In this document: one piece after another, positions 12,703-35,251 of the stretch
Layout: each line of letters starts with the position of its first letter
How positions within the stretch are numbered: the stretch's first letter is position 1
Source: an uncultured Acetobacteraceae bacterium
GTDB lineage: Bacteria; Pseudomonadota; Alphaproteobacteria; Acetobacterales; Acetobacteraceae
DNA: 64,000 nt
Reading direction: 5' to 3'
Assembly (NCBI GenBank): GCA_964244615.1
Contig: CAXTJP010000001.1
Location: 27,488 to 91,487, forward strand
Notes under the pieces: model-generated
Databases searched by the model: none
The model's input: the letters and a program-made list of their open reading frames with translations, nothing else
Told to the model about the DNA's origin: nothing
Position numbers and translations under genes: made by a program

Positions 12703-12849
12703 CAGCGCGTCGCGTCGTCCTCGCGAGATGAACAACCTCGGGATCGCCAAGCAGCCGGCGTGTATCCGTCAGTTACCGGACGGCGTTTTCTACGCATTTG
12801 CGTAGGTGCGTAGTTGCTAATAGGGAAGGGTTCTGCCCTGACCACTTCG

Positions 12850-12871
12850 ACCGGGCGTTTACCGGGCGTTT
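12850..12871. repeat. Tandem 11-bp direct repeat ACCGGGCGTTT x2
   Basis: Exact copies at 12850-12860 and 12861-12871, about 100 bp upstream of the priming glycosyltransferase. Confidence 0.6.
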
Positions 12872-12969
12872 ATAGTTTGACAGCTTCAGTCATAACGCCT
12901 ACTTTCCTTACGGCAGGGGATCGACGCCGTTACAGCGCGTCCTTTGTTTATGAAATAAAGGGCGTGGTG

Positions 12970-14457
12970 ATGTCCCATTCATCGTCTTGCCTGGCACCCC
13001 CCGGTCTCGACGGGTTCGTCTCGACAAGCCCAACCTACAGAGAGGCGGCACGTCGTTGCTCACCGGCCCGGTTCGGCGCGCTCGTCGTGGCAGCCGACCC
13101 CGGCCTGATGATCCTTTCGGCCTTGCTGTCCATGCTGGCACTGCACATGATTTCCGGTGGCGCATGGCACGTCGGCGACATCGCTCTCGGTCCGGTCCCG
13201 GCGCTGATCACGCTTGCCGTCCTGGGTCGCCCCGACACCGGTGCGCTCGCCGAACTGCGCCGCACCATCCGCGTGCACAGCTCGGCACAGCTCGCCATAC
13301 CGGCAGGCGGGGCCGGGCTCGTCCTGGCCGCCATCGCGACCCATCACACCGCCGAAGACGCGATGCTCGGCGCCGCGGTGTGGCTGTTCAGTTCCACGGC
13401 CCTTCTCCTGTTCCGTTCCGTTGCAGCAAGGTTTTTCGCCGATCGCTGGTCGCGCAACGACTATCTCAGATTGTGCGTGGCGCTCGTCGGCACGCCCGAG
13501 GAGACAAGGATGCTTGCCGTCCAGCTGCCCGGCGCCGGTGCCGTGCCGCCGGTCAGCATCGTCGGCTGCTACGACGACACCGTCGTCAACCGCATCCAGC
13601 CACTCGGTGCGTCAGCCTGGCCGGGCGGGCTCGGCGCCCTGTTGAGCCTCGACCACGGCAGCGTGCCCGATGCCGTCCTGATCGGCGTGCCGGGCAGCGA
13701 CGCCGATCGCCTCTCACGGGCGCTGTCCGCGTTGGGCGGGCTCGCGACCACTCTCTGCGTGGCGGCACCCGCCGACGCCGCCGGCTACGGCCGAGCGCGC
13801 CTGGGCGACCTCGCACTCGGTGTCGTAGCGCGGCCGCTTTCCGGCTGGCAGACGACCCAGAAGGACATCTTCGACCGCGTCGGCGCGTTCCTGCTCCTGA
13901 TGCTGGCGCTGCCGTTCATGGCGGCGATTGCCGTGGCGATCCGTTGCGAAACGGCCGGTCCTGTCCTGTTCCGGCAGCAGCGGACCGGCCTCGGCAATCG
14001 ACCGTTCACCTGCCTGAAGTTCCGCACCATGCATCATCGCCCGCCTCTGGAGGGCCAGGCCGCCGCGTTCCAGCAGACCGTGCGCGGCGACCATCGCGTG
14101 ACGCGGGTCGGCGGATGGCTGCGCCGGACCAGCCTCGACGAGTGTCCGCAACTGCTGAACGTCCTGCGTGGCGACATGTCGCTGGTGGGCCCCCGGCCGC
14201 ACGCGCCGAACACCACGGCCGACGGGCGGTTGTTCCAGGACATCGTGACCGATTACGCCAGCCGTCATCGCGTCCGGCCGGGCATCACCGGTTGGGCGCA
14301 GGTCAACGGTTATCGTGGCGAAACCCCCGACGCCGCTTCGGTCGTCCAGCGCGTGCAGCACGACCTGTTCTACGTCGCGAACTGGTCGATGCTGCTCGAC
14401 CTGCGGATCCTGATGCGAACCGCACTCTGCGTCCTGCACGATCCGCAGGCCTTTTGA
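12970..14457 (+). CDS. Undecaprenyl-phosphate sugar-1-phosphate transferase (priming GT, WcaJ/GumD-like)
   Basis: N-terminal TM segments; C-terminal bacterial sugar transferase domain [55 protein letters not shown] and DLFYV. Confidence 0.92.
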
Positions 14458-14491: not shown

Positions 14492-15754
14492 ATGAAGACC
14501 GACGTGATCATTATCGGAGCAGGGCCTTTCGGGTTGTCGCTGGCGGCGATGCTGCGGGAACGCGGCGTGAACCACCGCATCTTCGGAACGCCGATGCATA
14601 CCTGGCGCACGGCCATGCCCGCGGGGATGAACCTGAAATCGGAAGGCTTTGCCTCCGACCTCTACGGAGGCGGCGCCGGGCTGACCTTGCAAACCTATTG
14701 CGCCGCGCGCGGCATTCCATACCGGGCCGCCGGACTGCCGGTGAAGCTGGACGTCTTCACAGCCTATGGCGAAGCCTTCCAGCGCGGCCTCGTGCCGCAG
14801 CTCGAGAAACGCCAGGTGGTGGGCGTGCAACGCGCGCCGGGCGGCTACGCCGTCGAGATCGAGGGCGGCGAGCAATGCCGGGCCACCCGCGTCGTGGTGG
14901 CGGCCGGCATCACCCATTTCGCGCATCTCCCCGAGACGCTGCGCAGCCTGCCGCCCTCCCTCTGCGGCCATGCCTCGCGCTTTCCGGACCCGGCGCGCTT
15001 TGCCGGCCGGCGGCTGGCGGTGGTCGGTGCGGGTGCGTCGGCCACCGATTACGCGGCCCTTGCCGCAGAAGCGGGGGCGCAGGTCAGCATGATCGCGCGC
15101 GCGCCACGCGTGAACTTCTTGCAGCCGCCCTCCGGCCGGCCGAGGAGCCTGGCGGAGAGCCTGGCGGCGCCGCAATCGGGTCTGGGACCGGGGTGGCGTT
15201 CACGCATGGCCACGGACGCGCCGCTGGTGTTCCACCGCATGCCGGAGGCCTTTCGTCTGCTGGTGAACAAGCGCCATCTCGGCCCCGCCGGCGGCTGGTG
15301 GACCAGGGAGAGCATCGAGCAACGGGTCGACCTGCGGTCCGGCACCAGCGTGGTGGCAGCCCATCGGGCCGGCGAGAGCGTGGCGCTGGATCTGCTGCAC
15401 GCATCGGGGCAAACCAGCCGCCATGTCGTGGACCACGTCGTTGCGGCCACCGGCTACCGTCCGGACCTGCAGCGCCTGACGTTTCTCTCGCCCGAGCTGC
15501 GATGCCTGCGAACCGTGGCCGGCGCCCCGGCGCTGTCGTCCCAATTCGAATCATCGTCGCCCGGACTGCATTTCATCGGCCTGGCCTCGGTGCATGATTT
15601 CGGTCCGCTCGTGCGGTTTGCCTTCGGCGCCGATTTCTCGGCGAGCCGACTGTCGCGCTTCCTGGCCCGGCAGAGCCGTACCAGCGTGGCCGGCTACCGG
15701 GCGCCGTCCACCGTCGCCATCCCGGCCGACGCCATGGCCGGCGACCTCGCATGA
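14492..15754 (+). CDS. FAD/NAD(P)-dependent oxidoreductase (flavin monooxygenase-like)
   Basis: Two Rossmann motifs, IIGAGPFG and VVGAGASA, plus AATGY; AGGA RBS. Confidence 0.85.
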   Translation: MKTDVIIIGAGPFGLSLAAMLRERGVNHRIFGTPMHTWRTAMPAGMNLKSEGFASDLYGGGAGLTLQTYCAARGIPYRAAGLPVKLDVFTAYGEAFQRGLVPQLEKRQVVGVQRAPGGYAVEIEGGEQCRATRVVVAAGITHFAHLPETLRSLPPSLCGHASRFPDPARFAGRRLAVVGAGASATDYAALAAEAGAQVSMIARAPRVNFLQPPSGRPRSLAESLAAPQSGLGPGWRSRMATDAPLVFHRMPEAFRLLVNKRHLGPAGGWWTRESIEQRVDLRSGTSVVAAHRAGESVALDLLHASGQTSRHVVDHVVAATGYRPDLQRLTFLSPELRCLRTVAGAPALSSQFESSSPGLHFIGLASVHDFGPLVRFAFGADFSASRLSRFLARQSRTSVAGYRAPSTVAIPADAMAGDLA

Positions 15755-17067
15755 GGGCGGAGACGATCGTCCTGCACGAAGGCTGGAGCGGCGATCCCGA
15801 AACCCACGCCTGCGCGGTGCCGATCTACCAGACCGCCGCCTTCACCTTCGACAGCGCCGACCACGGCGCGGCGCTGTTCAACCTCGACGTTCCGGGCAAC
15901 ATCTATACCCGGATCGGCAATCCGACTTCCGCGGTGCTCGAGGCGCGCCTGACGGCCCTCGAGGGCGGCGTGGGGGCGTTGACGACAAGTTCCGGCGCGG
16001 CGGCGATCCACTACGCGCTGGACTGCCTCGTGCAGTCCGGCGACAACATCGTCTCCCTGCCGGAACTCTACGGCGCCACTTACACCCTGCTGGCCCATGT
16101 GATGCGCGCGCGCGGGGTGCAGGTGCGCTTCGCCGATTCCGACCGGGCGAATGACGTGGCCAGGCTGATCGACGAGCGGACACGCTGCGTCTACTGCGAA
16201 AGCGTCGGCAACCCGGCCGGCACCATCGCCGACCTCGCGACCCTGGCACGCGTGGCCCATGCCGGCGGCGTTCCGCTGATCGTGGACAACACGGTCGCCA
16301 CCCCCATCCTGTTGCGCCCCATCGAGTTCGGCGCCGACGTGGTGGTGCATTCGCTGACCAAGTTCATCGGCGGCCACGGGACGTCGCTCGGCGGCGCCAT
16401 CGTGGATGCCGGCAACTTCGACTGGGCGAGCCAGGGCGATCGCTTCGCGATGCTGGTCCAGCCAGAGCCCGCCTACCACAACGTGGTCTATACCGAGCAA
16501 TTCGGCCGCGCGGCTTTCGTCGCGCGCTGCCGTACCGTGGGGCAGCGCAACACGGGGGCGACGCTGTCGCCGTTCAACGCCTTTCTCATCCTGCAGGGTC
16601 TGGAGACGTTGCCGTTGCGGATCGAGCGGCATGTGAGCAACGCGCGGGCGGTTGCGGTTTTCCTGCGCGGGCACCGGCATGTCGCGTGGGTGAACTACGC
16701 GGGCTTCGCCGATTCGGTGCACAACGAGCGGCTTGTGGCGTATCTCGGCGGCCAGGCGCCGGCGCTGCTGACCTTCGGCGTGATCGGTGGTTGGGAGGCC
16801 GGCAAGCGCTTCCTCGATTCGCTGCGCATGTTCAAGCGGCTGGTGAACATGGGCGACGCGAAGTCGCTGGCCACGCATCCTGCGTCGACCACACACCGGC
16901 AGCTGTCGGGGCAGGAACTCGCACGGGCCGGGGTGGCGCCGGAGATGATCCGGCTGGCCATCGGACTCGAACACATCGATGACATCCTGGCGGATCTCGA
17001 CCAGGCGCTGCGGCACTCGGCCGCGACGCCGGCCGTGCAACTGCTCGAAGACGCGTTCGCACAGTGA
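15751..17067 (+). CDS. metY: O-acylhomoserine aminocarboxypropyltransferase (sulfhydrylase), MetY family
   Basis: Motifs [27 protein letters not shown] lysine [18 protein letters not shown] and IRLAIGLEH; ATGA overlap with the upstream gene. Confidence 0.88.
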
Positions 17068-18020
17068 ACGTGCTCGCGCCCATCAGGCTGTGGCCACGTC
17101 ACGACATCGAGGCCGGGCATGACCGGCCGCTGGTCATAGGATTGCTGAACAACGCGTCCGAGGCGGCGTTCCGCACGACCGAGCGCCAGTTCGCACGGCT
17201 GTTGAACAACGCGTCGCCGGGGCCGGCCGTCATCCTGCGCAGCTATGCCCTGCCGGAAATCCATCCCGACCCGATCGCCTGCCTGCGCCACAGCCACTCC
17301 CACCTCTCGATGGACATGCTGCGCTGCGTGCCGCCCGACGGTCTCATCGTCAGCGGCGCAGAACCCGGCTCCGCCAGCCTGAAGGACGAGCCTTACTGGC
17401 GATCGCTGGTGGCGGTGCTGGACTGGGCACGCGCCGCGCGCTTGCCGACGATACTGTCCTGCCTGGCCGCCCATGCCGCCGTGTTGCACGCATCAGGCAT
17501 CGAGCGGCGCCGGCTGGTGCGCAAATGCACCGGCATCTACCCGATCAGCGCGGCGGCAAACCACTGGCTGTTGCCCAAATTGGGGCCGAACCCCTGCATG
17601 CCGCACTCGCGCTGGCACGAGCTCGACGAGAGAGCCCTCGTCCAAGCCGGCTACGTGGTTCTCACGCGTTCGGCGCAGGCGGGGGTGGACATGTTCGCGT
17701 CACCCGACGAGGACGCCTGGCTTTTTTTCAACGGGCACCCCGAATACGACGAGGACACGCTGATGAAGCAGTATCGGCGCGACATCGGGCAGTTCCTGCG
17801 GGGCGAGCGCGCGGACTATCCGGACCTGCCGTGCCAGGACATGGCGCCGGCGACGGCTCGCCGTCTTGCCATGGTGCGTCGGCTGGCGCTGGCCGGCCTG
17901 CCGACACGGGCCATCGAGGCTTTCCCGGCGACGGAGCAGGCGGGAACGCCCGCCTGGCGGCAGATGGCGGCCGGCGTCGTCGGCAACTGGCTGATGAGGG
18001 TTCGTGACCGTGTGGCCTGA
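17064..18020 (+). CDS. metA: Homoserine O-succinyl/acetyltransferase family protein (MetA-like, divergent)
   Basis: Motifs TERQFARLL, DGLIVSGAEPG, nucleophile Cys in LSCLAAHAA, PHSRW and catalytic HPEY; GTGA overlap with metY. Confidence 0.8.
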   Translation: MNVLAPIRLWPRHDIEAGHDRPLVIGLLNNASEAAFRTTERQFARLLNNASPGPAVILRSYALPEIHPDPIACLRHSHSHLSMDMLRCVPPDGLIVSGAEPGSASLKDEPYWRSLVAVLDWARAARLPTILSCLAAHAAVLHASGIERRRLVRKCTGIYPISAAANHWLLPKLGPNPCMPHSRWHELDERALVQAGYVVLTRSAQAGVDMFASPDEDAWLFFNGHPEYDEDTLMKQYRRDIGQFLRGERADYPDLPCQDMAPATARRLAMVRRLALAGLPTRAIEAFPATEQAGTPAWRQMAAGVVGNWLMRVRDRVA

Positions 18021-19242
18021 AACCCCCGCCCTCGACTCCCGCCCGGCGACGGGCAGCCGGTTCTTGCCTGTCGTTCGGATGGCGTTTTGCACCGTGCTGG
18101 CGCGCGACGATGGCGGCGATGGCGACTTCTTCGACCTCGGCGGGGACTCGATCCTGGCGGTCGAACTGTTCCTGACGCTGCGTCGCCTGACGGGCATCGA
18201 GCTGCCGATCACCGCCATCTACGACGCATCCACCGTCGGCAGCCTGGCTGCACTTCTGGATGAGGGCGCGGTTGTCGGCCAGCGCTCCTGCGTGGTGGCG
18301 TTGCGGCCGGCGCGTGCCGGCTGCACCCTGCCCCCGCTCTTTGTGGTGCATGGCATGGGCGGGCTGGCGCTGACGTTCCGCGACATGGCGTCGCGCCTGG
18401 AAGACGGCCGCGCCGTCTATGGCATCGAACCGCAGGGACTGGACGGCACGCAAACCCCCTTGGAAACGGTCGAGTCGATGGCGGCGCTGTACCTCGACGC
18501 GGTTCGCGCCATCCAGCCCTGCGGCCCCTATGCCTTCGCCGGCTACTCCTTCGGCGGCCTGGTGGCCTTCGAGATGGCGTGCAGGCTGCACGAGCAGGGC
18601 TGCGTCGTCGAACCGCTCATCCTGCTGGACAGCTTCTCGCATCCGCAGCGCTGGCCGATGGACGCCCGCCTGTACGCGCTGCGTTCGCTGCTGCCGACCT
18701 ATCTCTCGGGCGGAGCCGTTCGGCGGCTGCTCGACTATTACGTCCGTCGCATCCGGGCGCTGCCGAAGGCCTCGGTTCCCGCCTACCTGGCGGGTGCCCT
18801 GTTGCGGGCCGTGCGGTCGCCCCTCGATGTCGGGCGAGCGGGGTTTGCGACGCGCATGGCAGCCTCGGCGCAGCGTTATGCGCCGCCCGACACGGCCGAA
18901 ACGGCGCTGCCGGCCTTGGCACAGGTGACACGCGCCTGCCATCGCGCGTTCCGCGCCTATGCACCCGGCTACCTTCCCGGGCCGTTGACGATCGTCAAGG
19001 CGGAGCAGGAGGATTTCCTGCCGTTCTCGCCAAGGCTGGTCTGGCGACGTCATTGCCTGCGCGTCACAGTCAGGCGCGTGCCGGGCGGCCACCAGCGTCT
19101 CGTCCGCCTGGGCTCGGCATCGCTCGCGGCCGAACTGTCCGCCTGCCTGGCGGCAGCAGCGGACGAGGCCGGCTCGGCAGCGATGCCCGATCGGACCGCG
19201 CTGCCAGCGGCCACCGGCTGGCCCGCCGGCCAGTGCGCATGA
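18004..19242 (+). CDS. Carrier protein (phosphopantetheine-binding) fused to thioesterase
   Basis: DFFDLGGDSILAVELF carries the Ppant Ser; the TE domain has LFVVHGMGG, GYSFGG (GxSxG), LLDS and a C-terminal GGH. Confidence 0.87.
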   Translation: MTVWPETPALDSRPATGSRFLPVVRMAFCTVLARDDGGDGDFFDLGGDSILAVELFLTLRRLTGIELPITAIYDASTVGSLAALLDEGAVVGQRSCVVALRPARAGCTLPPLFVVHGMGGLALTFRDMASRLEDGRAVYGIEPQGLDGTQTPLETVESMAALYLDAVRAIQPCGPYAFAGYSFGGLVAFEMACRLHEQGCVVEPLILLDSFSHPQRWPMDARLYALRSLLPTYLSGGAVRRLLDYYVRRIRALPKASVPAYLAGALLRAVRSPLDVGRAGFATRMAASAQRYAPPDTAETALPALAQVTRACHRAFRAYAPGYLPGPLTIVKAEQEDFLPFSPRLVWRRHCLRVTVRRVPGGHQRLVRLGSASLAAELSACLAAAADEAGSAAMPDRTALPAATGWPAGQCA

Positions 19243-20786
19243 TGCCGTGTCCCACGCTGGACGGGGGCGATGCCGCGGCGCTGCTGCGGACCTTGCCGGA
19301 CAGCATTTCCGAGATGCTGGCGGCATCGGTGCGGGAGGGGCCGCACCGGTTGGCCGTCACCGACGAGACTGGTCGCTGGACATACGCGGACCTTGCCGCC
19401 GGCGTGGACGCAGCGATGGCCGTATTGGCAGAAAACGGGCTCGGCAGCGGCATGCGGGTGCTGCTGCTGGGCGAGAACCGCCGCGCGACGGTGGCCATGC
19501 TGTTGGCCGTGCTGGCAGCGGGGGCCTGGGCCGTGCCGCTCAATCCCAGGATGGCGCAGGCGGAGCTCGACGGCATACGCGATCATGCCGACGCGTTCAT
19601 GGCGGTGTACTGCCTGGACGAAGCGCCGCAGGTGCGCGCGCATGCCGCGCGTTACGGCGCGGACCTGATCGACGTGCCGGGCGTGGGCAGGATCGGCCTC
19701 GAACGGATCGGCGGCGGCGATCAGGTGGCGGCAGCCAACGGACGCGTGGCCGTCCTGATCTACACGTCCGGCAGTTCCGGCACGCCGAAGGGCGTGATGC
19801 TGACGCACCGCAACCTGTTGTTCATGGCAGCCGCGTCGGGTGCGGTACGGACGCTGGGGCCGGCCGACCGGCTTTACCTCGTGCTGCCGCTTTCGCATAT
19901 CGTGGGGCTTGCGGTGATCCTGCTGGGCGGCCTGTTGCATGGCGCCACGGTGCAGCTTGCTTCACAGTTCCGGCCGCGCGAACTGTTCCGCGCGTTGGCG
20001 GAGGACGGCGTCACCATCCTGCTCGGCACGCCGGCGCTGCTGACGTTCCTGCTGGACCATGCGCGGACGCGGCCCGCGCCCTCGACACCGCGGCTGCGTA
20101 TCGTGTCGGTCTCCGGCGCGCCGCTGGACCAGGCCACCAAGGTGCGCGCCGAAGCCCTGTTCGGGCTGACCCTGCATCATGGCTACGGCATTACCGAATG
20201 CGCGCCCACCATCGCCCAGACACGCCCCGAGGCGCCGCGGTCCGACTGCTCGGTCGGCCGTCTGCTGCCGGGGATGCAGGCGCGCCTGGTCGACCCGGCC
20301 TCCGGCCTGGCGGCGCGCGACACCGGCGAACTGCACGTGCGGGGGCCAAACATCATGCTCGGCTACTTCCGCGCGGAGGAGGAGACCGCGCGCCTGTTGG
20401 ATCGGGACGGCTGGTTCAACACCGGCGACCTCGCGCGCGTCGAGGACGGACATCTGTTCATCGTCGGCCGCACCAAGGAGATGGTGATCCGCTTCGGGTT
20501 CAACGTCTATCCGGCTGAGATCGAGGCCGTGCTGGTAACGCATCCGGGCGTCAGGGCCTGCGCGGTCGTCGGGCACAGCGATGGCGGCGAGGAGCAACTG
20601 ATCGCGTTCGTCGAACCGCTTCCCGGTCGGGACGTGACCGCGGAGAGGCTGATGCGTCACGCGGCTGAGCATCTGGCCTCCTACAAGCGCCCGAGCCGGC
20701 TGGTGCTGCTGCCCGCCTTGCCGATGACACTCTCCGGCAAGGTGCGGAAGTCGGAGCTGATGCAGCTCGCCTGCGTGCCCGCGTGA
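19239..20786 (+). CDS. Stand-alone adenylate-forming enzyme (acyl-CoA/acyl-carrier ligase class)
   Basis: Motifs YTSGSSGTPKG, HGYGITE, NTGDL, GRTKE and SGKVRK; ATGA overlap with the carrier-TE gene. Confidence 0.9.
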   Translation: MMPCPTLDGGDAAALLRTLPDSISEMLAASVREGPHRLAVTDETGRWTYADLAAGVDAAMAVLAENGLGSGMRVLLLGENRRATVAMLLAVLAAGAWAVPLNPRMAQAELDGIRDHADAFMAVYCLDEAPQVRAHAARYGADLIDVPGVGRIGLERIGGGDQVAAANGRVAVLIYTSGSSGTPKGVMLTHRNLLFMAAASGAVRTLGPADRLYLVLPLSHIVGLAVILLGGLLHGATVQLASQFRPRELFRALAEDGVTILLGTPALLTFLLDHARTRPAPSTPRLRIVSVSGAPLDQATKVRAEALFGLTLHHGYGITECAPTIAQTRPEAPRSDCSVGRLLPGMQARLVDPASGLAARDTGELHVRGPNIMLGYFRAEEETARLLDRDGWFNTGDLARVEDGHLFIVGRTKEMVIRFGFNVYPAEIEAVLVTHPGVRACAVVGHSDGGEEQLIAFVEPLPGRDVTAERLMRHAAEHLASYKRPSRLVLLPALPMTLSGKVRKSELMQLACVPA

Positions 20787-20820: not shown

Positions 20821-22152
20821 ATGACACCGCCGCCGAGCATGGGGGCTGCCACGCCGTTGGCATTGGCACGAACGGCCCCGGCCGCGAGCGAAGTCTCAAC
20901 GACGAGGCAGCGCCGTGGCCCTGTGGATGGCACGCCAGGCCAGCCCGGCTCCACGCCCGCCGACAGGCTCGCCTGGCTGGATGCCATGCGGCTGCTCACC
21001 ATGGTCGAGATCCTGGGCTTTCACTGGCTGAGAACGTGCCAGGAGAACGGCAGCTTCGGACTGACCTGGTCGCCAGGATACGAGGACGTGGGCAGGGGAT
21101 TGCACCAGATCGGTTACTTGCTGACCGACCAGACGGGTTTGTCGGCAGCGTCGTTCTGCAACAACCTGATCGGCCTTGTTTTCGGCTATGGCTGGGAGGC
21201 GGTGAACGTGTTCGTGATGCTGAGCGGCATCGGCCTGGCGCTCAGCTACCGTCGCGGCACGGCTCTGCGGCCCTGGTATGCGCGGCGATACCGACGCATT
21301 CTCGTGCCGTACTACCTGGCCTGCTTTCCGCTGATACTCGCAGCCGAAATGCTCAGGCAGGTCGGCAGCGGGCGTCCGGGCATGCTCGGTCATCTCGCCG
21401 CCAAGCTCACCGTCAAGAACCTGCCCGATCCGCTGGGCATCGAACTGGCCAAGCACCTGGTCCTGATCGACCCGCGGCAGTTTCTCGGCATCATCGACTT
21501 CTTCTCGCCGGCCTGGTGGTTCTTGCCGCCGATCCTGTTCGCCTACCTGCTGTTTCCAGGCCTCGTCTGGTTGTTCGACCGCCTGGGTGCTGCTCCCGTG
21601 CTGGCGGCGGCGTTCGTCATCTCACTGTCGGCGTACGAGCTCACCCATTTCGGCCTGCTGCCCGAGCACGGCTGGTACTTCGTGGCGCTGCACGAATGCT
21701 TCGACTTCAACCTTGCGATCTGGGTGGGCCTTCGTCTGCGCAGCGATGGCGGCCGGGCGCACATCGCGCGTTGGCTGCGCTCGCCCACGGCTTTGGCGAT
21801 CGGCGCGGCCGCTTTCGTGGCCGGCAACGTGTTGAGCTGGTTTTCGCCGACGCATTTCGTCGCCAGCTGCGTGTTCGCGCCCGGGCTTGCGATCCTGTTG
21901 GGCTGGATGTCGATCCATCTGACCCGCCTGCACTGGACGGCTGGCGCAGCCCGGAGGTGGGACACGTATTTCATCTATCTTCTGCACCAGTGGATCGCCT
22001 TTCCTCTTGTGCTTGCCACCGCGCTGCTGGCTGGTCCGTTGGCCCATTCCGTCGGCTTCGCGGCAGGAATGCTGGCCTATCTCTGCCTCGTGCTGCTCGT
22101 GGTGGCCGTGTTTTCCCGGACAGTGGCGTACCTGCCTGCAGCTTTGCGGTAA
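20821..22152 (+). CDS. Acyltransferase family 3 membrane protein (divergent)
   Basis: Motifs WLDAMRLL, AVNVFVMLSG, RRYRRILVPYY, WWFLPP and TYFIYLLH; multi-TM. Confidence 0.78.
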   Translation: MTPPPSMGAATPLALARTAPAASEVSTTRQRRGPVDGTPGQPGSTPADRLAWLDAMRLLTMVEILGFHWLRTCQENGSFGLTWSPGYEDVGRGLHQIGYLLTDQTGLSAASFCNNLIGLVFGYGWEAVNVFVMLSGIGLALSYRRGTALRPWYARRYRRILVPYYLACFPLILAAEMLRQVGSGRPGMLGHLAAKLTVKNLPDPLGIELAKHLVLIDPRQFLGIIDFFSPAWWFLPPILFAYLLFPGLVWLFDRLGAAPVLAAAFVISLSAYELTHFGLLPEHGWYFVALHECFDFNLAIWVGLRLRSDGGRAHIARWLRSPTALAIGAAAFVAGNVLSWFSPTHFVASCVFAPGLAILLGWMSIHLTRLHWTAGAARRWDTYFIYLLHQWIAFPLVLATALLAGPLAHSVGFAAGMLAYLCLVLLVVAVFSRTVAYLPAALR

Positions 22153-22167: not shown

Positions 22168-23526
22168 TCAGAGAAAGGTGCTGGCCGTCTGTTCAAGCGG
22201 CCGCCGGGAGAGAGCGGCGTGCTTGGGGCCGGCGTCCACCATGCCGACATGCTTGGCCCTCCAGCGGGCGAGCATACGCGCCAGCAATCCACGGTCGGGC
22301 CACGGCAGACGCACCAGTTCGGCCAGCAAGCGCGGATCGTCCCAGGGGACGTCATGGAAGGCTTCGTGCAGGGCCGGCATGGTCGGGTCCTGCCGCCAGG
22401 CCTGGGGGAACAACGCGATCGTCTTGTTGACCGTCGACGGTTCGCTCGACACGGCGAGGCCGGTCATCGTGCCTGCCAAAGCCGACATGGGATCGCATCC
22501 CACCCCCAGGGCCAAGGATGCCAGCGGCGTGCTTCTGCCGTTCAACTCGATGAGATGTGCCCGGCCGGTGGCGGATTCCACGATGAAATCCAGGCCGCAA
22601 AACCCCGACAGGCCGAGCTGCCCGACGAGTTGCTCCGCCATGTCGCGCATCTCGGCGTTGTCGGTGACCTGCACCACGGTGGACGCACCGACTTCGGTTC
22701 TTGCCTTGAGGACGTTGACGTATATGCCGCCCAGCACACGCCCTCGCCTGCAGGACACCACGCAGTTTGCCGGATGACCCTCGACGTACCGTTGCAAACT
22801 GACGCGCGGCACGGCACGGGAAAGACAAGGCAGCACGTGAAACGCGTCGCGGTCGACAAGCAAGCGTTTGAGGGCGCGCACGACCGGCAACGGCCGCGAC
22901 AGCTTTTCGAAGGCTGCCTCGGCCTGGGCGGCGCTTCGAACGACCACCACACCCAGACCGCCCCAGGTCCCGTCCACCTTCATCACAGCCGCCGCGCCCA
23001 GCGCTTCGAACGCAACGCCGGCAGACGCGGCCGAGTTGACCTCCAACGTCTCAGGCGCACGCAGCCCGGCCGATCGCGCACAGCGTATGAGTTCGACCCG
23101 GCTGTCCACGATCGGGAAGCTCGCGGGAGAGCCCAGGGAACGCTCGAGAATATCGCGCCGATGTGTATCGGACCGTTCGTAGAGGCAGTGGAGATGCGAC
23201 AGCGCCCGGTCGTCGCACGGCACCACCAGATCGGGTCTCGCTGTCCCGATCGCCTTGCCAAGCGAACCGATGGGACGCACTGCAGAATAACGATGCAGCC
23301 GGTGCACGCCCCGGGTCTTGTAAAGCGGATGTCCGACCGGGCAAACCGCCTCGACGCGAAACCCCAGTTTGTTGAACCGCGCGGCCATGCGTGCAGCAAA
23401 CGCCCACCATACCGTCGTGGTGAGAAGGACGGTCGGCACTTTCGCTCCGACATGCAACAGGTCGCCACCGTGCGGTAGGTCCAGTTGCGCGTGCAGGTGT
23501 GCGAGCGAGCTCGAAAGCGAAGTCAT
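22168..23526 (-). CDS. ATP-grasp domain protein
   Basis: Motifs VVPCDD, VMKVDGTWGGLGV, LQRYVEG, GLSGFCGLDFI and LIELNGR; start placed at ATG 23526. Confidence 0.8.
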   Translation of the reverse strand: MTSLSSSLAHLHAQLDLPHGGDLLHVGAKVPTVLLTTTVWWAFAARMAARFNKLGFRVEAVCPVGHPLYKTRGVHRLHRYSAVRPIGSLGKAIGTARPDLVVPCDDRALSHLHCLYERSDTHRRDILERSLGSPASFPIVDSRVELIRCARSAGLRAPETLEVNSAASAGVAFEALGAAAVMKVDGTWGGLGVVVVRSAAQAEAAFEKLSRPLPVVRALKRLLVDRDAFHVLPCLSRAVPRVSLQRYVEGHPANCVVSCRRGRVLGGIYVNVLKARTEVGASTVVQVTDNAEMRDMAEQLVGQLGLSGFCGLDFIVESATGRAHLIELNGRSTPLASLALGVGCDPMSALAGTMTGLAVSSEPSTVNKTIALFPQAWRQDPTMPALHEAFHDVPWDDPRLLAELVRLPWPDRGLLARMLARWRAKHVGMVDAGPKHAALSRRPLEQTASTFL

Positions 23527-24030
23527 GGACGCGATACGCACCCTCTCACCAGTATACGGTATCGACAGCCTCCCCGGGGAGCGCGTCCCATGGGAGCTTT
23601 CTTCTTCAACCAGCCGCTTGACACGCCGACACGACAAACACCCTTCTGTCAGAAGACGTTGCCGACCGGACATGAAAGGACGAGGAGCCACTGCACGGCG
23701 CGATCCAGCGCAAGTCTGCTCGGAAGATCAATCCGGAGAAGCTGCGCCAAACCAAGTTCTACATGGCAAGATATCGTCGACAAAGTCAACGATTGTGGTG
23801 ATCCCGACGGCCAGGATTCGCAGGATCAAATAGTCCTTTGAGTCATGGCGGGCTCTGCATGCTGCCATCGACGGTTGCAGACTTTCCCGCTGAACCTGAA
23901 AAGTCGGCGTGTCCGAAGGGAGCGAGCCTGTTCACCGCCGGCGCCAGGACAGTCCAGCATGGTCGCCGGCTCACGATGTTCCGCGTCCGAAAGACCTGTA
24001 GTGTCCGCCTGCGCCATGCTATGCCAAGCA

Positions 24031-25134
24031 ATGGGAACCGCGACCCTTGCTTCTCTGCGCACCGGGCGACCGGACTTCCCGACGATCCAGGTTCTGCGAG
24101 CCCTGGCGGCCTTGATGGTCGTGGCCTTCCATGCCTTGGAAGCGTGGCAACGATTGCTGGATCCACGACACGCGACGGCCGCCTGGCCGAACGGGTCTGC
24201 CGGGGTCGATCTGTTTTTCGTCATCAGCGGCTTCGTCATCGCTATCGCCTCGCGCAGCCTGGCAGGCGGCCCGCTTGGCTGGCGCCTGTTTCTCATGCGG
24301 CGGTTGCAACGGATCGTCCCTCTGTACTGGCTGCTGACCACGTGCATGCTGGCCATGGTGCTCCTCGCGCCAGCGCTCGCGCCGCATATCCAGCCCGGTG
24401 TCTGGAACACCGCAGCGTCGTACCTGTTCGTCCCGTCTTACGACAGGGCAGGCCTGCTGCGGCCTGTGCTCACGGTGGGCTGGACCCTCAACTTCGAAAT
24501 GCTGTTCTACGTCCTGTTCGCAGCCGCCCTCGCCTGGCGGATTGCACCGCTCAAGCTGCTCCTGCCGATCCTGCTGCCGCTGGCGCTGCTCGGTTTCTTT
24601 CGCCTTGACAGCTGGCCGGCCGTGACGTCGCTCGCCAACAGCCTGGTGCTGGAGTTCTGCTTCGGGATCGTGGTGGCCCAGATCCACATGTCAGGCCGTC
24701 GCGTCTCGCCTGCCTGGGCCTGGTGTCTTTTGGTCGGTGGTTGCTGCCTGCTACCGACCTTGCCTGACGCGGGTGCTGCACGCGGGTTGGTTTGGGGCCT
24801 TCCGGCGGCCGCGATCGTGTTGGGCGCGACGATGCTGGAGCCTGTACTGGGGCCGTATATCCCGGTCCTCGCTCTTGAGCTCGGTGATGCCTCCTACGCC
24901 ATCTACCTGGTACACCCGTTCATCGTTCCGGCGCTGGCTCATGGGTTCCGACACCTGCCTGTGTCGCGCGGTGCGCTGCTGTTCATCGAAGTCGGCGCCT
25001 CGATACTGGCAAGCGGGCTCGCCGGCAGACTGCTCAACCAGCGTTTGGAACGGCCTATGCTGGCCTGGTTCAGGCGTGGACGCCCGCAGCGCAGCGTGGA
25101 GGCCGCTCAGCCTGTGCCAATGGGCACGGCCTGA
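24031..25134 (+). CDS. Acyltransferase family 3 (ExoZ/OafA-like)
   Basis: Motifs IQVLRALAALMVVAFH, GVDLFFVISGFVI, RRLQRIVPLYW, VGWTLNFEMLFY and GDASYAIYLVH. Confidence 0.88.
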   Translation: MGTATLASLRTGRPDFPTIQVLRALAALMVVAFHALEAWQRLLDPRHATAAWPNGSAGVDLFFVISGFVIAIASRSLAGGPLGWRLFLMRRLQRIVPLYWLLTTCMLAMVLLAPALAPHIQPGVWNTAASYLFVPSYDRAGLLRPVLTVGWTLNFEMLFYVLFAAALAWRIAPLKLLLPILLPLALLGFFRLDSWPAVTSLANSLVLEFCFGIVVAQIHMSGRRVSPAWAWCLLVGGCCLLPTLPDAGAARGLVWGLPAAAIVLGATMLEPVLGPYIPVLALELGDASYAIYLVHPFIVPALAHGFRHLPVSRGALLFIEVGASILASGLAGRLLNQRLERPMLAWFRRGRPQRSVEAAQPVPMGTA

Positions 25135-25211: not shown

Positions 25212-27185
25212 TCAATCGGGCTTCGTCACGGCAAGGACGAGCGTGTCCCAGCGAGACAGCGAAACCGGCAGAGTGATCAGGCCGGCTTGCGCGTCGATGA
25301 CGGTGCTGGTTGCCTTGAACAAGTCCGAGACCTGGGCTCGTGCGATACCCAGATCGGCCAAGGTCACCGTGCCGGATGCGCTGTCAGCCATGGGCCCGGT
25401 CGAAGGATTGCTGATGACCAAGATCAGCCGCCCGTTCTGGTCATAGAACCCGAAGCAGGCCAGACCCGCGGACAGCTTGAGCGGCTGGTTGGTCAAGGCG
25501 GCAAACTCGCCGGGCGAGCTGACGACCGGCGCTATGGAAGTGAGCGCCTGCAGCTCGGATGGCGGCAGCAAGCTGGTGCCGCCGATCACCGCCCATGCCG
25601 AAGGTGCATTGTTCGTGCCGGCTTTGATGCTGCCGAGCGCTGCATCGGAGACGTAGTAGCCGACCGGACCGCCGCCATCGATGAAGGTCTGCAGGTCCGT
25701 CGCGGACAGGTAGCCACCGACCGAGAGGCCCGCACCGTGGCTGGCGGCGCCGGCCCGTTCGACGGCACGCTCGATGGCGGCCGAGTAGTACAGAGCCGCC
25801 CCGAACGGCCGGGTCGGCACGATGGACTGTATCAAGGAGGTGAGAGGGTCCAACGCGCTGAGCGTTCCGACATCCCAGTAATCGCGTGTGGTGTAGGCAA
25901 GCGCCCGCCGCACCCGGCCAGCTTGGTCGGCGACATGCGCCCAGGCCGACCACAGCCACAGGCGCTTCATTAGCTTGTAGCCGACCTCCTGCCGCGTCGC
26001 CTGGTCCAGCGTGGGGTAGAATTGCGCGATGGCCTGCCAGTAGGCGCTGTCATCGGCCTCCAGGTTGGCGCCGTTTCGCAATCTCGGCTCGCGTGCGGCA
26101 GCGACGGCGAAGCCGGAAAGCTCGCCTACGGGAGAGACCGCGACCGGCCCCTGGCGATCGGCCTGGATCAGGTGATCGTCCCATGTGCACAGGTATGATC
26201 TCGGGTTTATATGAGCCACGAGAATGCGCTCGTCATTGCCGACCATGCGGCGATAGGACGGAGTCTCCGCACATTGATCGACGACCAGCCCGGTCCGGCC
26301 CGCGGCGCCGCCTACGCGCAGGGCCAGTGCTCGGTAGAAGGCGCCGTAGCCCGCCGAGAGGAAGTCGTTCCACTGGTTGAACGCATTCCGTACGATCCAG
26401 TCTGCCTGGGCCGGTACCGTGGCGCCCTGGATCGTCAGCGACGGGTAGGCCTTGGCGAACGCGGACACGATGCGCGGGTTGAAGCTTTGGAAGCTGGAGG
26501 GCCGGTCGGGCTGGCTGTCGGTGAAATCCGAAAGGATCAGGCCGTAGGCGCCGGACAATGCCGATGTCAGGGACCAACGATAGGCATAATCGTCGCCCCA
26601 GTCGCACGCCGTCATGCCAGGCGGACAATCGGCCGTGTCGAGCGGCGTGAGCGGGCTGATGTGGCCCCACTGACCGCCCCAGGATCTGTAGTAGCTCTCC
26701 GTCGGCATGGCGCCTCCGTCGAAGCCAAGATCCCAATATTGCGGGTGCGTGGCTACGAAGTTCCGCCAGGCCACAAATTCCGGCTTGTTGTAGAAGCCAA
26801 GGTTGAGATCGTTGACGACGAAGTCAGGTGGGTTCTGGAACGTCCCCGGTGGAAACGAGGCCGCGTACGTGTCTTCCCAACGCTGCAGGCCGGCGGCGGG
26901 AACGATACCGGCGGCTTCGAGCGAAGCGGCAGCATGTTTCGCAGACGCAATATCGTCCGGATTGTCGTAGAACGAACTCGGATTCGCCTGGTAGAACAGG
27001 TTGCCCGGTTCCAGCCCGACTGCGGCCCCGTAGGAATACTGGAAGATGCTGTTTTGGAAAGGCAGTGTTCTGTAGCTGGTCATGCCCACTTGCCCGGCCG
27101 CATCCACCGGCTGACTCATCGCCGCCTGGCACCAGGCGGCCGCTGCTATGCTGATGGGAACGATGTATCGACGAAAATCCGACAT
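25212..27185 (-). CDS. Large secreted protein of unknown function, possibly glycoside-hydrolase-like
   Basis: 657 aa from ATG 27185 with a signal-peptide-like MSDFRRYIVPISIAAAAWCQA; rich in Trp/Tyr/Asp; the GH assignment is only an impression. Confidence 0.65.
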   Translation of the reverse strand: MSDFRRYIVPISIAAAAWCQAAMSQPVDAAGQVGMTSYRTLPFQNSIFQYSYGAAVGLEPGNLFYQANPSSFYDNPDDIASAKHAAASLEAAGIVPAAGLQRWEDTYAASFPPGTFQNPPDFVVNDLNLGFYNKPEFVAWRNFVATHPQYWDLGFDGGAMPTESYYRSWGGQWGHISPLTPLDTADCPPGMTACDWGDDYAYRWSLTSALSGAYGLILSDFTDSQPDRPSSFQSFNPRIVSAFAKAYPSLTIQGATVPAQADWIVRNAFNQWNDFLSAGYGAFYRALALRVGGAAGRTGLVVDQCAETPSYRRMVGNDERILVAHINPRSYLCTWDDHLIQADRQGPVAVSPVGELSGFAVAAAREPRLRNGANLEADDSAYWQAIAQFYPTLDQATRQEVGYKLMKRLWLWSAWAHVADQAGRVRRALAYTTRDYWDVGTLSALDPLTSLIQSIVPTRPFGAALYYSAAIERAVERAGAASHGAGLSVGGYLSATDLQTFIDGGGPVGYYVSDAALGSIKAGTNNAPSAWAVIGGTSLLPPSELQALTSIAPVVSSPGEFAALTNQPLKLSAGLACFGFYDQNGRLILVISNPSTGPMADSASGTVTLADLGIARAQVSDLFKATSTVIDAQAGLITLPVSLSRWDTLVLAVTKPD

Positions 27186-27557
27186 TGCTGTTTCCCGAAT
27201 GGGGGTCGACCGGAGCCTGCCCCTGAACAGATCGATCTCGTTGCGGACACGCCCTTGGACTCGTCGAACATCTGGCTGGACGACGCGCGCCATCCGGCCG
27301 ATCAGGGCCGTTCCGCGCAGCGCTGACACGGCTGATCGCGGCGCGGCATTCTGCATTGCTGGCAAGCCTGGCACAGTGACATGACTATCGGTCTGTAGCA
27401 GGCTCCACGGAAGCTTACAACCTTAAGCTGTCATATGATGACTTATTCTACTCAAGGTAGCGTCTTCTTGTTGCTGCCCATCGTTGCCAGTTGACGTCGT
27501 TTTGCTTAGTCACTATCGTTCCATCAGGGTACAGGTACCAGGGCTCGGTAAGCACTG

Positions 27558-27749: not shown

Positions 27750-27857
27750 CAGCCTGCGGGGACGGCAAACACTGGCGAACTTGGCTGGGCCGGTGAGTTG
27801 GCCGACTTTAGCGAAGCGCTTGCGATCGGCCGCATCACCATGCCGGAGGAGTTGAGC

Positions 27858-29279
27858 ATGGACGGGCGGGACATCGTGACGGAGAACAGCGTATTGCAGC
27901 GCGCGCAGGCGCACGCGGAACGATTCCTCGCAAGCCTTTCCACGGCACCGTTATCGGCCACCAAGGATGCAGCCGCATTGCGGCAGGCGCTCGGCGGTCC
28001 GATGCCGGAGACGGGGACGCCGCCGGAGGAGGTCATCGATGCACTCGTGGCAGCGGTCGAGGGCGGCCTGCTTCGCTCCGGGTCCGGGCGCTTTTTCGGC
28101 TGGGTCATCGGCGGCACGCTGCCGGTGGCGCTCGCGGCCGACTGGATGACCGCCGTCTGGGATCAGAACGCGGCCTCCTATGCCACCAGCCCGGCCGCAT
28201 CGGTGGCGGAGGAGGTCTGCGGCACGTGGCTGAAGGACGTGCTGATGCTGCCGCCGGACGCGTCGTTCGCCATCGTCACAGGATGTCAGATGGCGCATGC
28301 CACCGCGCTTGCGGCCGCCCGACACCGGCTGCTGCAGCGCCGTGGCATCGATGTGGAGGCCGACGGGCTCGCGGGTGCACCGCGCATACGGATCCTCACC
28401 GGGGCGCACAGGCACGAATCCCTGCTGCGCGCGGCCAGGCTGCTCGGGCTGGGATCGCGCTGCGTCGAACTGGTCGCCTGCGATCCCGACGGCAGGCTGT
28501 CGATGGCCGCCCTGGCTCGGGCGCTGGCTGCCGACGCGGGACCGACCATCGTCGTGCTGCAGGCCGGCGACATGAACACCGGCAGGTTCGACGATTTCGG
28601 ACAGGCCTGTGCGCTGGCGCACGCGGCCGGCGCCTGGGTGCATGTGGACGGCGCCTTCGGCCTCTGGGCGGCCGTCAGCGAACGAACGCGTCACCTGCTG
28701 AACGGCGCGTCGCAAGCCGATAGCTGGGTGACCGACGGGCACAAATGGCTGAACCAGGGTTTCGATTCGGGCTACGTGTTCGTCGCGGATGCGGTCGCGC
28801 ACCGGGCCGCCTTCGCCTTGGAAACCCAATACAGCCACGCCGTGGAAGGCACGCGTCGGCAGATCGACTGGAACCCGGAATGGTCGCGCCGTGCGCGCGT
28901 GTTCTCGGTGTACGCGTCGTTGCGCGGCCTGGGGCGCAGCGGTTTGTGCGAGCTGATCGAACGGTGCTGCGACATGACGCGCCGGCTCGTGGCGGCCCTG
29001 GAGCAGCTGCCTGGCGTGGTGGTGCTGGCGGCGCCGGTCATCAACCAGGCGCTCGTCTGTTTCACCGCGCCAGACGGCCAGGACGACGAGAGGACCGATC
29101 GGGTGATCGCCGAATTGCAGGCGTCGGGCGAGGCGTGGTTCGGCGGCACGACGTGGCGTGGCCGCCGGGCGATGCGGATATCGGTCTGCAACTGGAGTAC
29201 CAACGAGAGCGATGTCGGTCGCGCCGTGCAATCCATCCGTTGCGCCATACGTGACGTGGCAGCGCAGGGCAGTCGGTAA
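27858..29279 (+). CDS. PLP-dependent group II amino acid decarboxylase (aromatic-L-amino-acid decarboxylase-like)
   Basis: Motifs RFFGWVIGG, HVDGAFG, PLP lysine TDGHKWLN and WSRRAR; GGAG RBS before ATG 27858. Confidence 0.9.
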   Translation: MDGRDIVTENSVLQRAQAHAERFLASLSTAPLSATKDAAALRQALGGPMPETGTPPEEVIDALVAAVEGGLLRSGSGRFFGWVIGGTLPVALAADWMTAVWDQNAASYATSPAASVAEEVCGTWLKDVLMLPPDASFAIVTGCQMAHATALAAARHRLLQRRGIDVEADGLAGAPRIRILTGAHRHESLLRAARLLGLGSRCVELVACDPDGRLSMAALARALAADAGPTIVVLQAGDMNTGRFDDFGQACALAHAAGAWVHVDGAFGLWAAVSERTRHLLNGASQADSWVTDGHKWLNQGFDSGYVFVADAVAHRAAFALETQYSHAVEGTRRQIDWNPEWSRRARVFSVYASLRGLGRSGLCELIERCCDMTRRLVAALEQLPGVVVLAAPVINQALVCFTAPDGQDDERTDRVIAELQASGEAWFGGTTWRGRRAMRISVCNWSTNESDVGRAVQSIRCAIRDVAAQGSR

Positions 29280-31461: not shown

Positions 31462-31481
31462 GGTCTGCTCCTGCGGCCTGC

Positions 31482-33071
31482 CTAACGGTCGATAGTCAGG
31501 TCGCTGGTCGGGCGGGCGCAGCACAGCAGCGCGAAGCCCTCGTCGATCTCGCTTTGCAGGATGCCGCCGTCATGGCGCATCTCGACCGTGCCGGACAGGA
31601 TGCGGCTCTTGCAAGTGCCGCAGACGCCCTTGCCGCAGGCGTAGGGCAGCCGCACGCCGGCGGCGCGGGCGGCCTCCAGCACGGTCGTGTCGCTGGGGCA
31701 GGTCACGTCGCGATCGCGGCGGGCGAAGCGAATGGCGAACACACCCGAGGCGATCCGGTCGTGAACCGGCGCGGCAGGCGCGTCACGCCGCGGCGCCGGC
31801 CCGGCGGGCGCTGCGGGTTCGCGGCGAAGCTGCAGCCCGGCACTCATGCGTTCCCCGTACCACCGGCAGAAATCGTCCACCAACCCCTCGGTGTACGGCG
31901 AGTAGGGGCCGGGCTCGTAGGCCGGGCTCACGACCCCTTGCTGGGTGATCTCCACCAGGTGGGCGTCCTGTCGGTTGGTCGCCTGCCAGACGGCCACCAG
32001 GTTGTCCGGGTCGTAATCCACGCCCTCCACCGCGTCCCTGTGCACCAGCCAGGTGGTGCGCAGCAGCGTGCGGCCGGGCTCCAGCGGCAGGACGCAGAAA
32101 GTGACCGCGTGGTCGGCCATCACGTGGTGCCAGGAGTTCGGCTGGGTCCAGAAGGTGAGCCCGCCCAGCCGCGTGTCCTTGAGGCCGCCCAGCAGCACCC
32201 GGCAGGCGCTCCTGGTGTCGCTCGTCTGGCTCTCCCCTGTCTGGTCCAGCGGCAGGCGCTCGGTCCGGTAACCGGTCGGGCGTCCGGTCAGCCGCTCGAT
32301 CCGGCGCGACGGCAGGCCGGAGGCCTCCCACCGCCCATGCATCTCCTGCACCAGCGTGTCGTAGCGCGCGGCCTGGTCCCGTTCGGCCTGGTTCAGCGAC
32401 GAGGGCGCGAAGCCGAAGCCGTAGGCGAAGAGCGGGACGGTCAGCTCCGGGTGGTTCGCCGCGCAGTGGTAGCACTCGCGGTTGTTCTCCATCGTGAGCT
32501 TCCAGTTGCCGCGCTCCACCAGATCCACCTGCCGCGCCACCTTCGCGTGACGCAGCCCGTGCGGCAGCAGGTACGGTTCCATCTCCGCCGCCATCGCCTC
32601 GATGTCGTCGGGCGGGTCCGCCGCCAGGCACACGAACAGCAGGCCGGCGACGGCGCGCAGCGCCACCGGGCGCAGCCCGCGGCAGGACGGATCGAAACCG
32701 TCGCCCATGTGGTCGGCGAACAGCAGCGCGCCGTCCAGGCCGTAGGTCCAGCTGTGGTAGCGGCACACCAGGTTGCCCACCCGGCCGGCGCCGTCCGCCA
32801 CGAGCTGCGCGCCGCGATGGCGGCAGACGTTGTGGAAGGCGCGCACCTCGCCCGAGCGGTCCCGCAGGATCAGGATCGGCGCGCGGCCGATGCGGATCGC
32901 CATCAAATCGCCCGGCTCCGGCACGTCGGGTTCCTGCCCGACGAAGATCCAGTGGCGGCCGAAGATCAGATCCATGTCGGCCTGGAACACCGCGGCGTCG
33001 GTGTAGAACGCGGCGTCGAGGCTGTGGCCGGGCCGCCGGTCGGCCAGCAGGCGCGGGAGATGGTCGGACAC
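31482..33071 (-). CDS. Rieske oxygenase alpha subunit (GbcA/Stc2-like) fused to a C-terminal plant-type [2Fe-2S] ferredoxin domain
   Basis: Rieske motifs CRHRG and CRYHSW; mononuclear Fe ligands NRECYHCAANH and QD; Pro/Ala linker; ferredoxin motif CGKGVCGTC...LLCC; GTG start at 33071. Confidence 0.9.
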   Translation of the reverse strand: MSDHLPRLLADRRPGHSLDAAFYTDAAVFQADMDLIFGRHWIFVGQEPDVPEPGDLMAIRIGRAPILILRDRSGEVRAFHNVCRHRGAQLVADGAGRVGNLVCRYHSWTYGLDGALLFADHMGDGFDPSCRGLRPVALRAVAGLLFVCLAADPPDDIEAMAAEMEPYLLPHGLRHAKVARQVDLVERGNWKLTMENNRECYHCAANHPELTVPLFAYGFGFAPSSLNQAERDQAARYDTLVQEMHGRWEASGLPSRRIERLTGRPTGYRTERLPLDQTGESQTSDTRSACRVLLGGLKDTRLGGLTFWTQPNSWHHVMADHAVTFCVLPLEPGRTLLRTTWLVHRDAVEGVDYDPDNLVAVWQATNRQDAHLVEITQQGVVSPAYEPGPYSPYTEGLVDDFCRWYGERMSAGLQLRREPAAPAGPAPRRDAPAAPVHDRIASGVFAIRFARRDRDVTCPSDTTVLEAARAAGVRLPYACGKGVCGTCKSRILSGTVEMRHDGGILQSEIDEGFALLCCARPTSDLTIDR

Positions 33072-33259
33072 GGAGGCACCTTGGTGTTTGCGGCGCATCA
33101 TTGCCCGATGGCGGGCGTGCCGGCCAACGGAAACCGGCAGGTTCGGGTCGTTTTACGCCAACTTCGTGCTGCGTCGCGAAAACGGCCTCCCACGCCGCTT
33201 CAGGGTGGTGTTACGCTCCCCAGACGTCAACGAAGGGGCACGACCTGACCACGGCACCG

Positions 33260-35127: not shown

Positions 35128-35251
35128 AAAAAAGTCTTCTTCGAGAAGAAGCAGGCTTTTATCTGCGCTGTCGCGGACAGCTGAAACGTCACTGCGACGT
35201 ATCGTATCCGAACGAAGGTTTTTCGTTCTTTTCAAAACAGCCTCCTTGCCT
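35125..35251 (+). repeat. AT-rich MITE/REP-like element, copy B
   Basis: AAGTCTTCTTCGAGAAGAAGCAGG...GCGCTGTCGCGG...GGTTTTTCGTTCTTTTCAAAACAGCCTCCTTGCCT, lying between proW and proX; left boundary approximate. Confidence 0.65.

Follow-up and report, generated by a model that had tools for sequence, protein, structure and literature searches.

Predicted carrier-thioesterase and adenylating ligase genes of an uncultured Acetobacteraceae bacterium lie at the tail of a conserved five-gene run with extra methionine-pathway enzymes

What is the role of a carrier domain fused to a thioesterase where no condensation domain is at hand? The question is raised by a 64,000 nucleotide stretch of DNA (hereafter the window) from an uncultured Acetobacteraceae bacterium (GenBank assembly GCA_964244615.1, contig CAXTJP010000001.1, positions 27,488 to 91,487), in which a gene for a carrier (T)-thioesterase (TE) didomain is followed by a gene for a free adenylating enzyme. 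A preliminary description, made from the sequence of the window, treated these two genes as a minimal unit resembling a nonribosomal peptide synthetase (NRPS). Both genes are real, but that unit was cut too short, as three more overlapping genes lie upstream. The T-TE and ligase genes appear to form the tail of a conserved, uncharacterised run of five genes that includes spare methionine-pathway enzymes. Our preferred reading, a tentative one that we put somewhat short of probable, is that T would be loaded with a 3-substituted propionyl group derived from homoserine and probably carrying sulfur, which TE would release or transfer. The features referred to below are as follows (window coordinates).

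12814-14457, + strand: WcaJ-like priming glycosyltransferase (TIGR03025, 319 bits; cut-off 296)
14492-15754, + strand: FAD/NAD(P)H oxidoreductase resembling class B flavin monooxygenases, first gene of the run (Pyr_redox_3, Lys_Orn_oxgnase)
15751-17067, + strand: MetY-like O-acylhomoserine gamma-replacement enzyme, predicted, carrier-linked clade (TIGR01326, alignment to 7KB0, tree)
17064-18020, + strand: MetA-like homoserine O-acyltransferase, predicted (PF04204, alignments)
18004-19242, + strand: T-TE didomain (Pfam, conserved residues, model)
19239-20786, + strand: acyl-CoA-ligase-type adenylating enzyme, cassette-specific clade (AMP-binding, motifs, tree)
20821-22152, + strand: acyltransferase-3 (AT3), divergent (PF01757, E 4e-14)
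22168-23691, - strand: ATP-grasp protein, start codon uncertain (PF02786, weak)
27798-29279, + strand: group II pyridoxal phosphate (PLP) decarboxylase, cassette-linked (alignment to 4RIT and 7XIN)

The order within the run is flavin oxidoreductase, MetY-like, MetA-like, T-TE and ligase, and each gene overlaps the next. Upstream of the T-TE gene the junctions are ATGA at 15751, GTGA at 17064 and a MetA stop codon within the start of the T-TE gene. The ATGA coupling of T-TE and ligase reported earlier was confirmed at 19239-19242, where the ATG start of the 515 aa ligase (19239-41) overlaps the TGA stop of the T-TE (19240-42). Whereas overlaps are found throughout the run, the ligase and AT3 genes are separated by a gap of 34 bp. 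The WcaJ-like gene lies 34 bp upstream of the run, which is embedded in an exopolysaccharide (EPS) locus of the Wzx/Wzc type (GT4, Wzc-like and Wzx neighbours), and this neighbour appears to tie the cassette to that locus. A scan for promoters and terminators gave signals no better than chance. A 735 aa frame (18579-20786) was considered as a fused gene and ruled out, as homologues align only from about the Met at 19239.

To assess conservation, nine close relatives of the T-TE were chosen on T-TE similarity and size of contig, not on MetA or MetY. In all nine, MetY-MetA directly precedes the T-TE, with MetA fused to it in one (P0016), and the ligase is in the flank of eight, either after the T-TE gene, after an esterase and a methyltransferase gene, or upstream. 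In a wider set of 44 loci with T-TE and MetA, MetA is directly upstream in 33 and the ligase directly downstream in 17. We note that the 44/44 count for MetA is partly circular, because these loci were selected by MetA or MetY, while the 9/9 count is not. Among 28 loci with wide flanks, MetY was found in 27, a CoA-type ligase in 23, a thiamin diphosphate (ThDP) decarboxylase in 15, aminotransferase IV in 11 and the flavoprotein in 9. EPS genes are present in eight of the nine loci of the closest (EPS-type) subtype, and the predicted EPS link is firm for this subtype and for exosortase-linked loci, but not for the group that contains Rhizomicrobium-like T-TEs. Two further arrangements were recorded. 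Sister MetY-MetA cassettes (L145-L148, L208 and L209) have no T-TE within the fetched flank, and carry either a Phe-type decarboxylase, two ligases and a short-chain dehydrogenase/reductase (SDR) or an amino acid:[carrier protein] ligase and an acyl-CoA dehydrogenase. In L132-L135 and L137-L140, DUF3050 (haem-oxygenase-like) is joined to MetY-MetA-T/TE, and five of these loci have an A-domain pocket starting Asp-Val-Trp.

The T-TE open reading frame (ORF) encodes 412 aa, and 410 aa, from the GTG at 18010, in the public gene call. Residues 24-85 match PP-binding (PF00550, E 2e-14) and residues 111-211 match Thioesterase (E 4e-27). In 36 homologues the carrier serine, Ser49 (codon 18148-50) in a GGDS motif, is near-invariant, as is Asp209 of the TE triad, while the other triad residues, Ser182 (codon 18547-49) and His363, are invariant. 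The Pfam matches and conserved residues bear out the earlier claim of an intact GGDS carrier fused to a thioesterase. Structure prediction, proposed then as a check, gave an AlphaFold2 model (predicted local distance difference test score 86.8) with NRPS T-TE termini as top structural matches, namely AB3403 (4ZXH) and the T-TE of EntF (3TEJ). With its Ser in GGDS, type I TE fold and Ser-Asp-His triad, the protein has the features of an NRPS T-TE didomain. T-TE matches were found in 59 of 301 genomes of the same family, and the free-standing type is a minority of these. Homologues of the T-TE carry the name 'acetoacetyl-CoA synthetase' at JGI, which was rejected, as it probably derives from ligase-T-TE fusions of about 1000 aa; the one such fusion that was read has an unrelated context.

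The observation that no condensation domain lies in the window extends to the host genome (G000, 3.07 Mb, 92 % complete), where none was found, nor was one found in G571, G450 or G671. In G467 and G337 condensation domains are present, but far from the cassette. The pathway lacks the condensation domain expected of a peptide-forming NRPS. A partner condensation or polyketide synthase (PKS) gene elsewhere had been named as a finding that could overturn the initial interpretation; the search of G000 found, besides the lack of condensation domains, one strong ketosynthase, which adjoins the acyl carrier protein of fatty acid synthesis on contig C3. Other carrier loci in G000 are L155:2795-5013 (C11), with an acyl carrier protein beside an FkbH-like protein, and L154:2229-7847 (C48), with a carrier near an AMP-binding enzyme.

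The MetY-like protein reaches 576 bits with TIGR01326 (cut-off 495), and in an alignment to 7KB0 it retains the PLP lysine (Lys204) together with Tyr52, Arg54, Ile55 and Arg266, which are equivalent to Tyr58, Arg60, Ile61 and Arg270 of TmMetY. It has, in these respects, what is expected of an O-acetylhomoserine sulfhydrylase. In TmMetY it is Arg270 that selects for acetylhomoserine and bisulfide and against cysteine (PMC8191291), and retention of its equivalent therefore suggests a small nucleophile or one that enters through a tunnel. Fub7 shares this residue, yet uses carbon nucleophiles (our alignment and PMC11331486). In a quick tree, the carrier-linked MetYs (30 from cassettes and 6 from the sister MetY-MetA cassettes) form one clade (SH-aLRT 100), with gammaproteobacterial metY-metA operons as the nearest outgroup. 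Position 109, beside the PLP-stacking Tyr, is Ala or Thr in all 36 members (Ala here) and Gly in the 30 other MetYs of the tree and in solved MetYs.

The MetA-like protein retains Cys133-His225-Glu227 and the homoserine-binding residues Lys154, Ser182 and Arg239, as expected of a homoserine transsuccinylase, and falls under the equivalog cut-off (NF003776, 303 bits versus 358). As the housekeeping MetX is located elsewhere in G000 and in five of five relatives, the MetA and MetY of the run appear to be dedicated copies. MetA is fused to the T-TE in P0016 and P0203, two near-identical proteins of one lineage. A search of plasmids with MetA gave no match, and a predicted complex of T domain and MetA-like protein scored 0.00, which counts neither way.

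The ligase matches AMP-binding (E 3e-73), and its top NCBIfam match, PRK06187, is at 332 bits, under the cut-off of 476. It does not have the features of an amino-acid A domain (TIGR01733, 193 bits versus 317; A4 is Ser-His, without the amino-acid-binding Asp). It does have those of an acyl-CoA ligase, namely the ANL fold, the A3, A5, A7 and A10 motifs and an A4 His (His220). The closest structures are oxalyl-, malonyl- and feruloyl-CoA ligases, with CahJ and PchD also among the matches. Relative to feruloyl-CoA synthetase 8WEU there is no insertion, and no fatty acyl-AMP ligase is in the top 50 fold matches. In the pocket analysis, which had also been suggested, the pocket residues pointed to no particular substrate.

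The 31 cassette ligases form one clade (support 100/96) nested within stand-alone relatives, five of whose loci were covered for 1.5 kb on each side. The sharpest difference is at position 419 in the A8 loop, which is Phe, His, Tyr or Arg in 31/31 cassette ligases (Phe419 here) and Ser or Gly in 18/18 stand-alone kin. The CoA pocket is bounded on one side by the A8 motif (PMC8460268). Five loci, L132 and L137-L140, have an NRPS-type A domain instead of the ligase next to the same T-TE, and the copies read in this group retain the amino-acid-binding Asp. Because NRPS-type A domains load carriers, the T-TE of these loci would be loaded in trans. This replacement and the bulky residue 419 of the cassette clade both favour trans loading, and the ligase of the window probably loads T in this way. 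The link of residue 419 to a switch of acceptor is suggestive only.

Genes for removal of C1 from an amino acid recur near the cassette. In the nine EPS-type loci, a PLP decarboxylase (five loci) and a benzoylformate-decarboxylase-like ThDP enzyme with aminotransferase IV (three loci) never occur together; in a fourth locus the aminotransferase was found without the ThDP enzyme being seen. The decarboxylase and ligase genes overlap in L235. The catalytic-loop Tyr, placed through alignment to 4RIT and 7XIN, is replaced by Phe in 7/9 cassette PLP decarboxylases (two groups about 28 % alike) and in 0/7 non-cassette ones. In plants this Tyr-to-Phe change yields aldehyde synthases (10.1101/404970). 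An aldehyde dehydrogenase gene adjoins that of the aminotransferase in exosortase-linked loci. Both modules point to an aldehyde, and a step from amino acid to aldehyde is proposed because the two are interchangeable and each appears aldehyde-directed.

The flavoprotein is present in 9/9 EPS-type relatives, and its nearest structures are flavin-containing and Baeyer-Villiger monooxygenases (weak, E about 1e-6). Among 32 loci, 10 have the flavoprotein and 8 have DUF3050, and none has both. The ATP-grasp protein is 47-51 % identical to those of L007-L016, L234 and L235; its gene is directly upstream of the flavoprotein gene in relatives, and here is displaced and on the opposite strand. An esterase gene lies directly 3' of the T-TE gene in relatives. 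In G000, genes for a GNAT protein (Acetyltransf_6) and a cassette-type esterase, the latter matching that of L007 at 45 %, lie 1-3 kb before the window (L151:16456-18526, contig C1), at the far end of the same EPS locus.

On the preferred reading, the T-TE and ligase would serve a dedicated pathway from homoserine as its loading and off-loading end. Homoserine would be O-acylated by the MetA-like enzyme, in line with the function of its family and the residues checked, and the MetY-like enzyme, again by family function, would swap the acyl group for a small nucleophile, X. The default for X is sulfide or methanethiol, and within this outline sulfur is reasonably likely. The amino acid may then shed C1 and its amino group through one or other of the interchangeable modules, giving 3-X-propanal and 3-X-propionate, which the ligase would adenylate and load in trans onto the phosphopantetheine of Ser49. 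In the last step, the weakest, the flavoprotein would oxidise X, and TE would release the unit or pass it to a soluble acceptor. For this subtype the end point is probably on or with the EPS, by way of the conserved ATP-grasp protein and esterase rather than AT3.

Several observations weigh against this pathway. The phosphopantetheinyl transferase found in G571, G337, G450 and G000 (in the last, a single 140 aa frame on contig C59) is only of the AcpS-sized type. The cassette ligase retains the C-terminal YKRP motif of CoA ligases, and residue 419 is no proven switch of acceptor: EntE loads carriers despite a Gly at the equivalent position, and 4-coumarate:CoA ligase uses CoA with a Lys there. 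EPS markers lie within 10 kb in 8 of the 28 wide-flank loci, and the loci are related by descent, so that the counts are not independent events. For this genome the aldehyde step is weaker, because the decarboxylase of the window, 7 kb away, retains the Tyr of the amine-forming type; in G000, searches for a close aminotransferase, ThDP enzyme or LCM methyltransferase gave none. The aldehyde could also come from another amino acid.

Fub7 makes pipecolates by joining carbon nucleophiles to O-acetylhomoserine (PMC11331486). A similar C-C coupling here, which we consider unlikely, would use the aldehyde from the module as nucleophile of the MetY-like enzyme and give a 5-substituted pipecolate or picolinate, to be oxidised by the flavoprotein or a P450, loaded on T by the ligase, and masked and unmasked by the methyltransferase-esterase pair. 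Fub7 is a MetY homologue (414 bits) that keeps the Arg270 equivalent, an aldehyde-forming module is linked to the cassette, and the cassette esterase has a weak match to FSH1, which we take to be the family of Fub4. However, an in-operon aldehyde dehydrogenase would consume the aldehyde, the cassette MetYs cluster with gammaproteobacterial metY-metA operons and do not have the Gly of Fub7 at position 109, and an alpha-amino acid is on the carrier in the A-domain subtype. The MetA-T-TE fusion, and the position of MetA directly upstream in 33/44 loci when the ligase is directly downstream in just 17, would fit a different explanation, also unlikely in our view, in which the ligase acts as a CoA ligase, or charges T merely to provide the acyl donor for the MetA-like enzyme. 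The T-TE would then serve MetA, and the MetY product or its amine would be amidated onto uronic acids by the ATP-grasp protein. The descent of the ligase from stand-alone enzymes found beside SDR, acyl-CoA dehydrogenase and P450 genes, and the Tyr-type decarboxylase of the window, are in keeping with this, but spending a tethered acyl group purely as a leaving group would be wasteful, the A-domain replacement fits a pathway intermediate on T better, and the fusion comes from a single lineage.

The match of the flavoprotein to the Lys/Orn N-hydroxylase Pfam family, and the mutual exclusion of flavoprotein and DUF3050, suggest a route by N-oxygenation, which is quite unlikely. Either the flavoprotein or, in other loci, DUF3050, as a di-iron enzyme, would make an N-hydroxy compound, which would be coupled to homoserine by MetY (an aminooxy-type amino acid) or would form on the carrier. 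Class B flavoproteins, however, oxygenate sulfur as readily, the DUF3050 loci are also without the decarboxylation module, for which DUF3050 may substitute instead, and many loci have neither protein. A broader speculation, itself unlikely, is that the MetY-like clade has moved out of methionine synthesis and joins O-acylhomoserine to a nucleophile other than sulfur, either an amino-acid-derived aldehyde, as in Fub7, or an N-hydroxy compound. A CoA ligase turned carrier loader would tether the product on the free T-TE, and the product would finally decorate a cell-surface polysaccharide in a way not described so far. The preliminary description had instead proposed that TE may pass its acyl group to the adjacent AT3, which would acylate the EPS repeat unit. 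AT3 is indeed the next gene, on the same strand, two further AT3 genes lie in the same EPS locus (window 349-1488 and 23845-25134), and local recruitment is conceivable. Comparative support for the hand-off is missing, because AT3 was absent from the Pfam-annotated flanks of the nine close relatives and was not found by tblastn with the gene itself, or by hidden Markov model, in any other fetched locus (the model missed this divergent AT3 in a leave-one-out trial, so that the absence rests also on tblastn and Pfam). For five relatives that carry the cassette, the closest Pfam AT3 is at least 94 kb off or on another contig. With 8 AT3 genes in G000, one as a neighbour within an EPS locus is to be expected, and AT3 enzymes normally draw acyl-CoA directly from the cytoplasm. 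The AT3 appears local to this genome rather than a conserved member of the cassette, whose conserved partners are MetY and MetA, and we consider the hand-off very unlikely. The other parts of that proposal, a carrier pathway free of condensation domains, a trans-acting ligase and an EPS locus, were supported.

Other genes in the window were also recorded. At 25212-27374 (- strand) is a gene for a secreted-looking protein of about 660 aa, without a Pfam or NCBIfam match, whose homologues (35-52 %) adjoin the cassette in L008, L009, L011, L016 (two copies) and L234; it is possibly a glycoside hydrolase or EPS-associated protein. Genes at 29401-36104, for an FMN oxidoreductase, a Rieske oxygenase-ferredoxin fusion and an ABC transporter, resemble a betaine-type catabolic cluster. 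At 37281-42001 a TPR-sulfotransferase gene is convergent with one for a TonB-dependent receptor.

All parts of the cassette are from known families, and their combination is conserved in many environmental bacteria. It could serve to test whether a CoA ligase has moved to a protein acceptor, with a single residue as candidate; it also offers a MetY-like clade with possible new nucleophiles, which is relevant to biocatalysis, and perhaps a new substituent of a polysaccharide. If the MetY is ordinary, a modest methionine-derived acylation pathway is left. Literature searches gave nothing relevant on this combination of genes, on DUF3050 or on EPS with a methylthiopropionyl substituent.

By the features set out above, the cassette resembles a minimal thiotemplated pathway that would fall outside NRPS proper and Dlt-like systems. 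EntF (3TEJ, 2ROQ), AB3403 (4ZXH) and SulM (8W2D) agree with it in fold, in the Ser motif of the carrier and in the Ser-Asp-His triad, but the T-TE of the cassette is free-standing, with no condensation domain in the searched genome, feeding by a CoA-ligase-type enzyme and coupling to MetA and MetY. The metY-metA operons of direct sulfhydrylation (TmMetY, 7KB0, and those of gammaproteobacteria) have the same gene pair and catalytic residues; the cassette differs in being extra to MetX, in having its own clade with Gly109 changed to Ala or Thr, and in being overlapped or fused with a carrier. The fungal Fub5/Fub7 (fusaric acid) and CndF (citrinadin) likewise place a MetY homologue with O-acetylhomoserine in specialised metabolism (PMC11331486), while the cassette is bacterial, has no PKS, has a carrier-TE and ligase, and C-C coupling is only a candidate. 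DhbE/EntE, CahJ, PchD and Dlt-type carrier-to-envelope systems also pair an adenylating enzyme with a carrier without condensation. The cassette, in contrast to these, has a type I TE fusion and another ligase clade, and no conserved membrane transferase, as AT3 is not conserved and no MBOAT is among the annotated recurring ORF families. A likeness to the proposed chemistry is seen in the Bur pathway to burkholderic acid/malleicyprol, where trimming of methionine gives a C3 sulfur acid, which is then adenylated and attached to a carrier; that route runs through S-methylmethionine and feeds a PKS-NRPS, which the cassette does not have.

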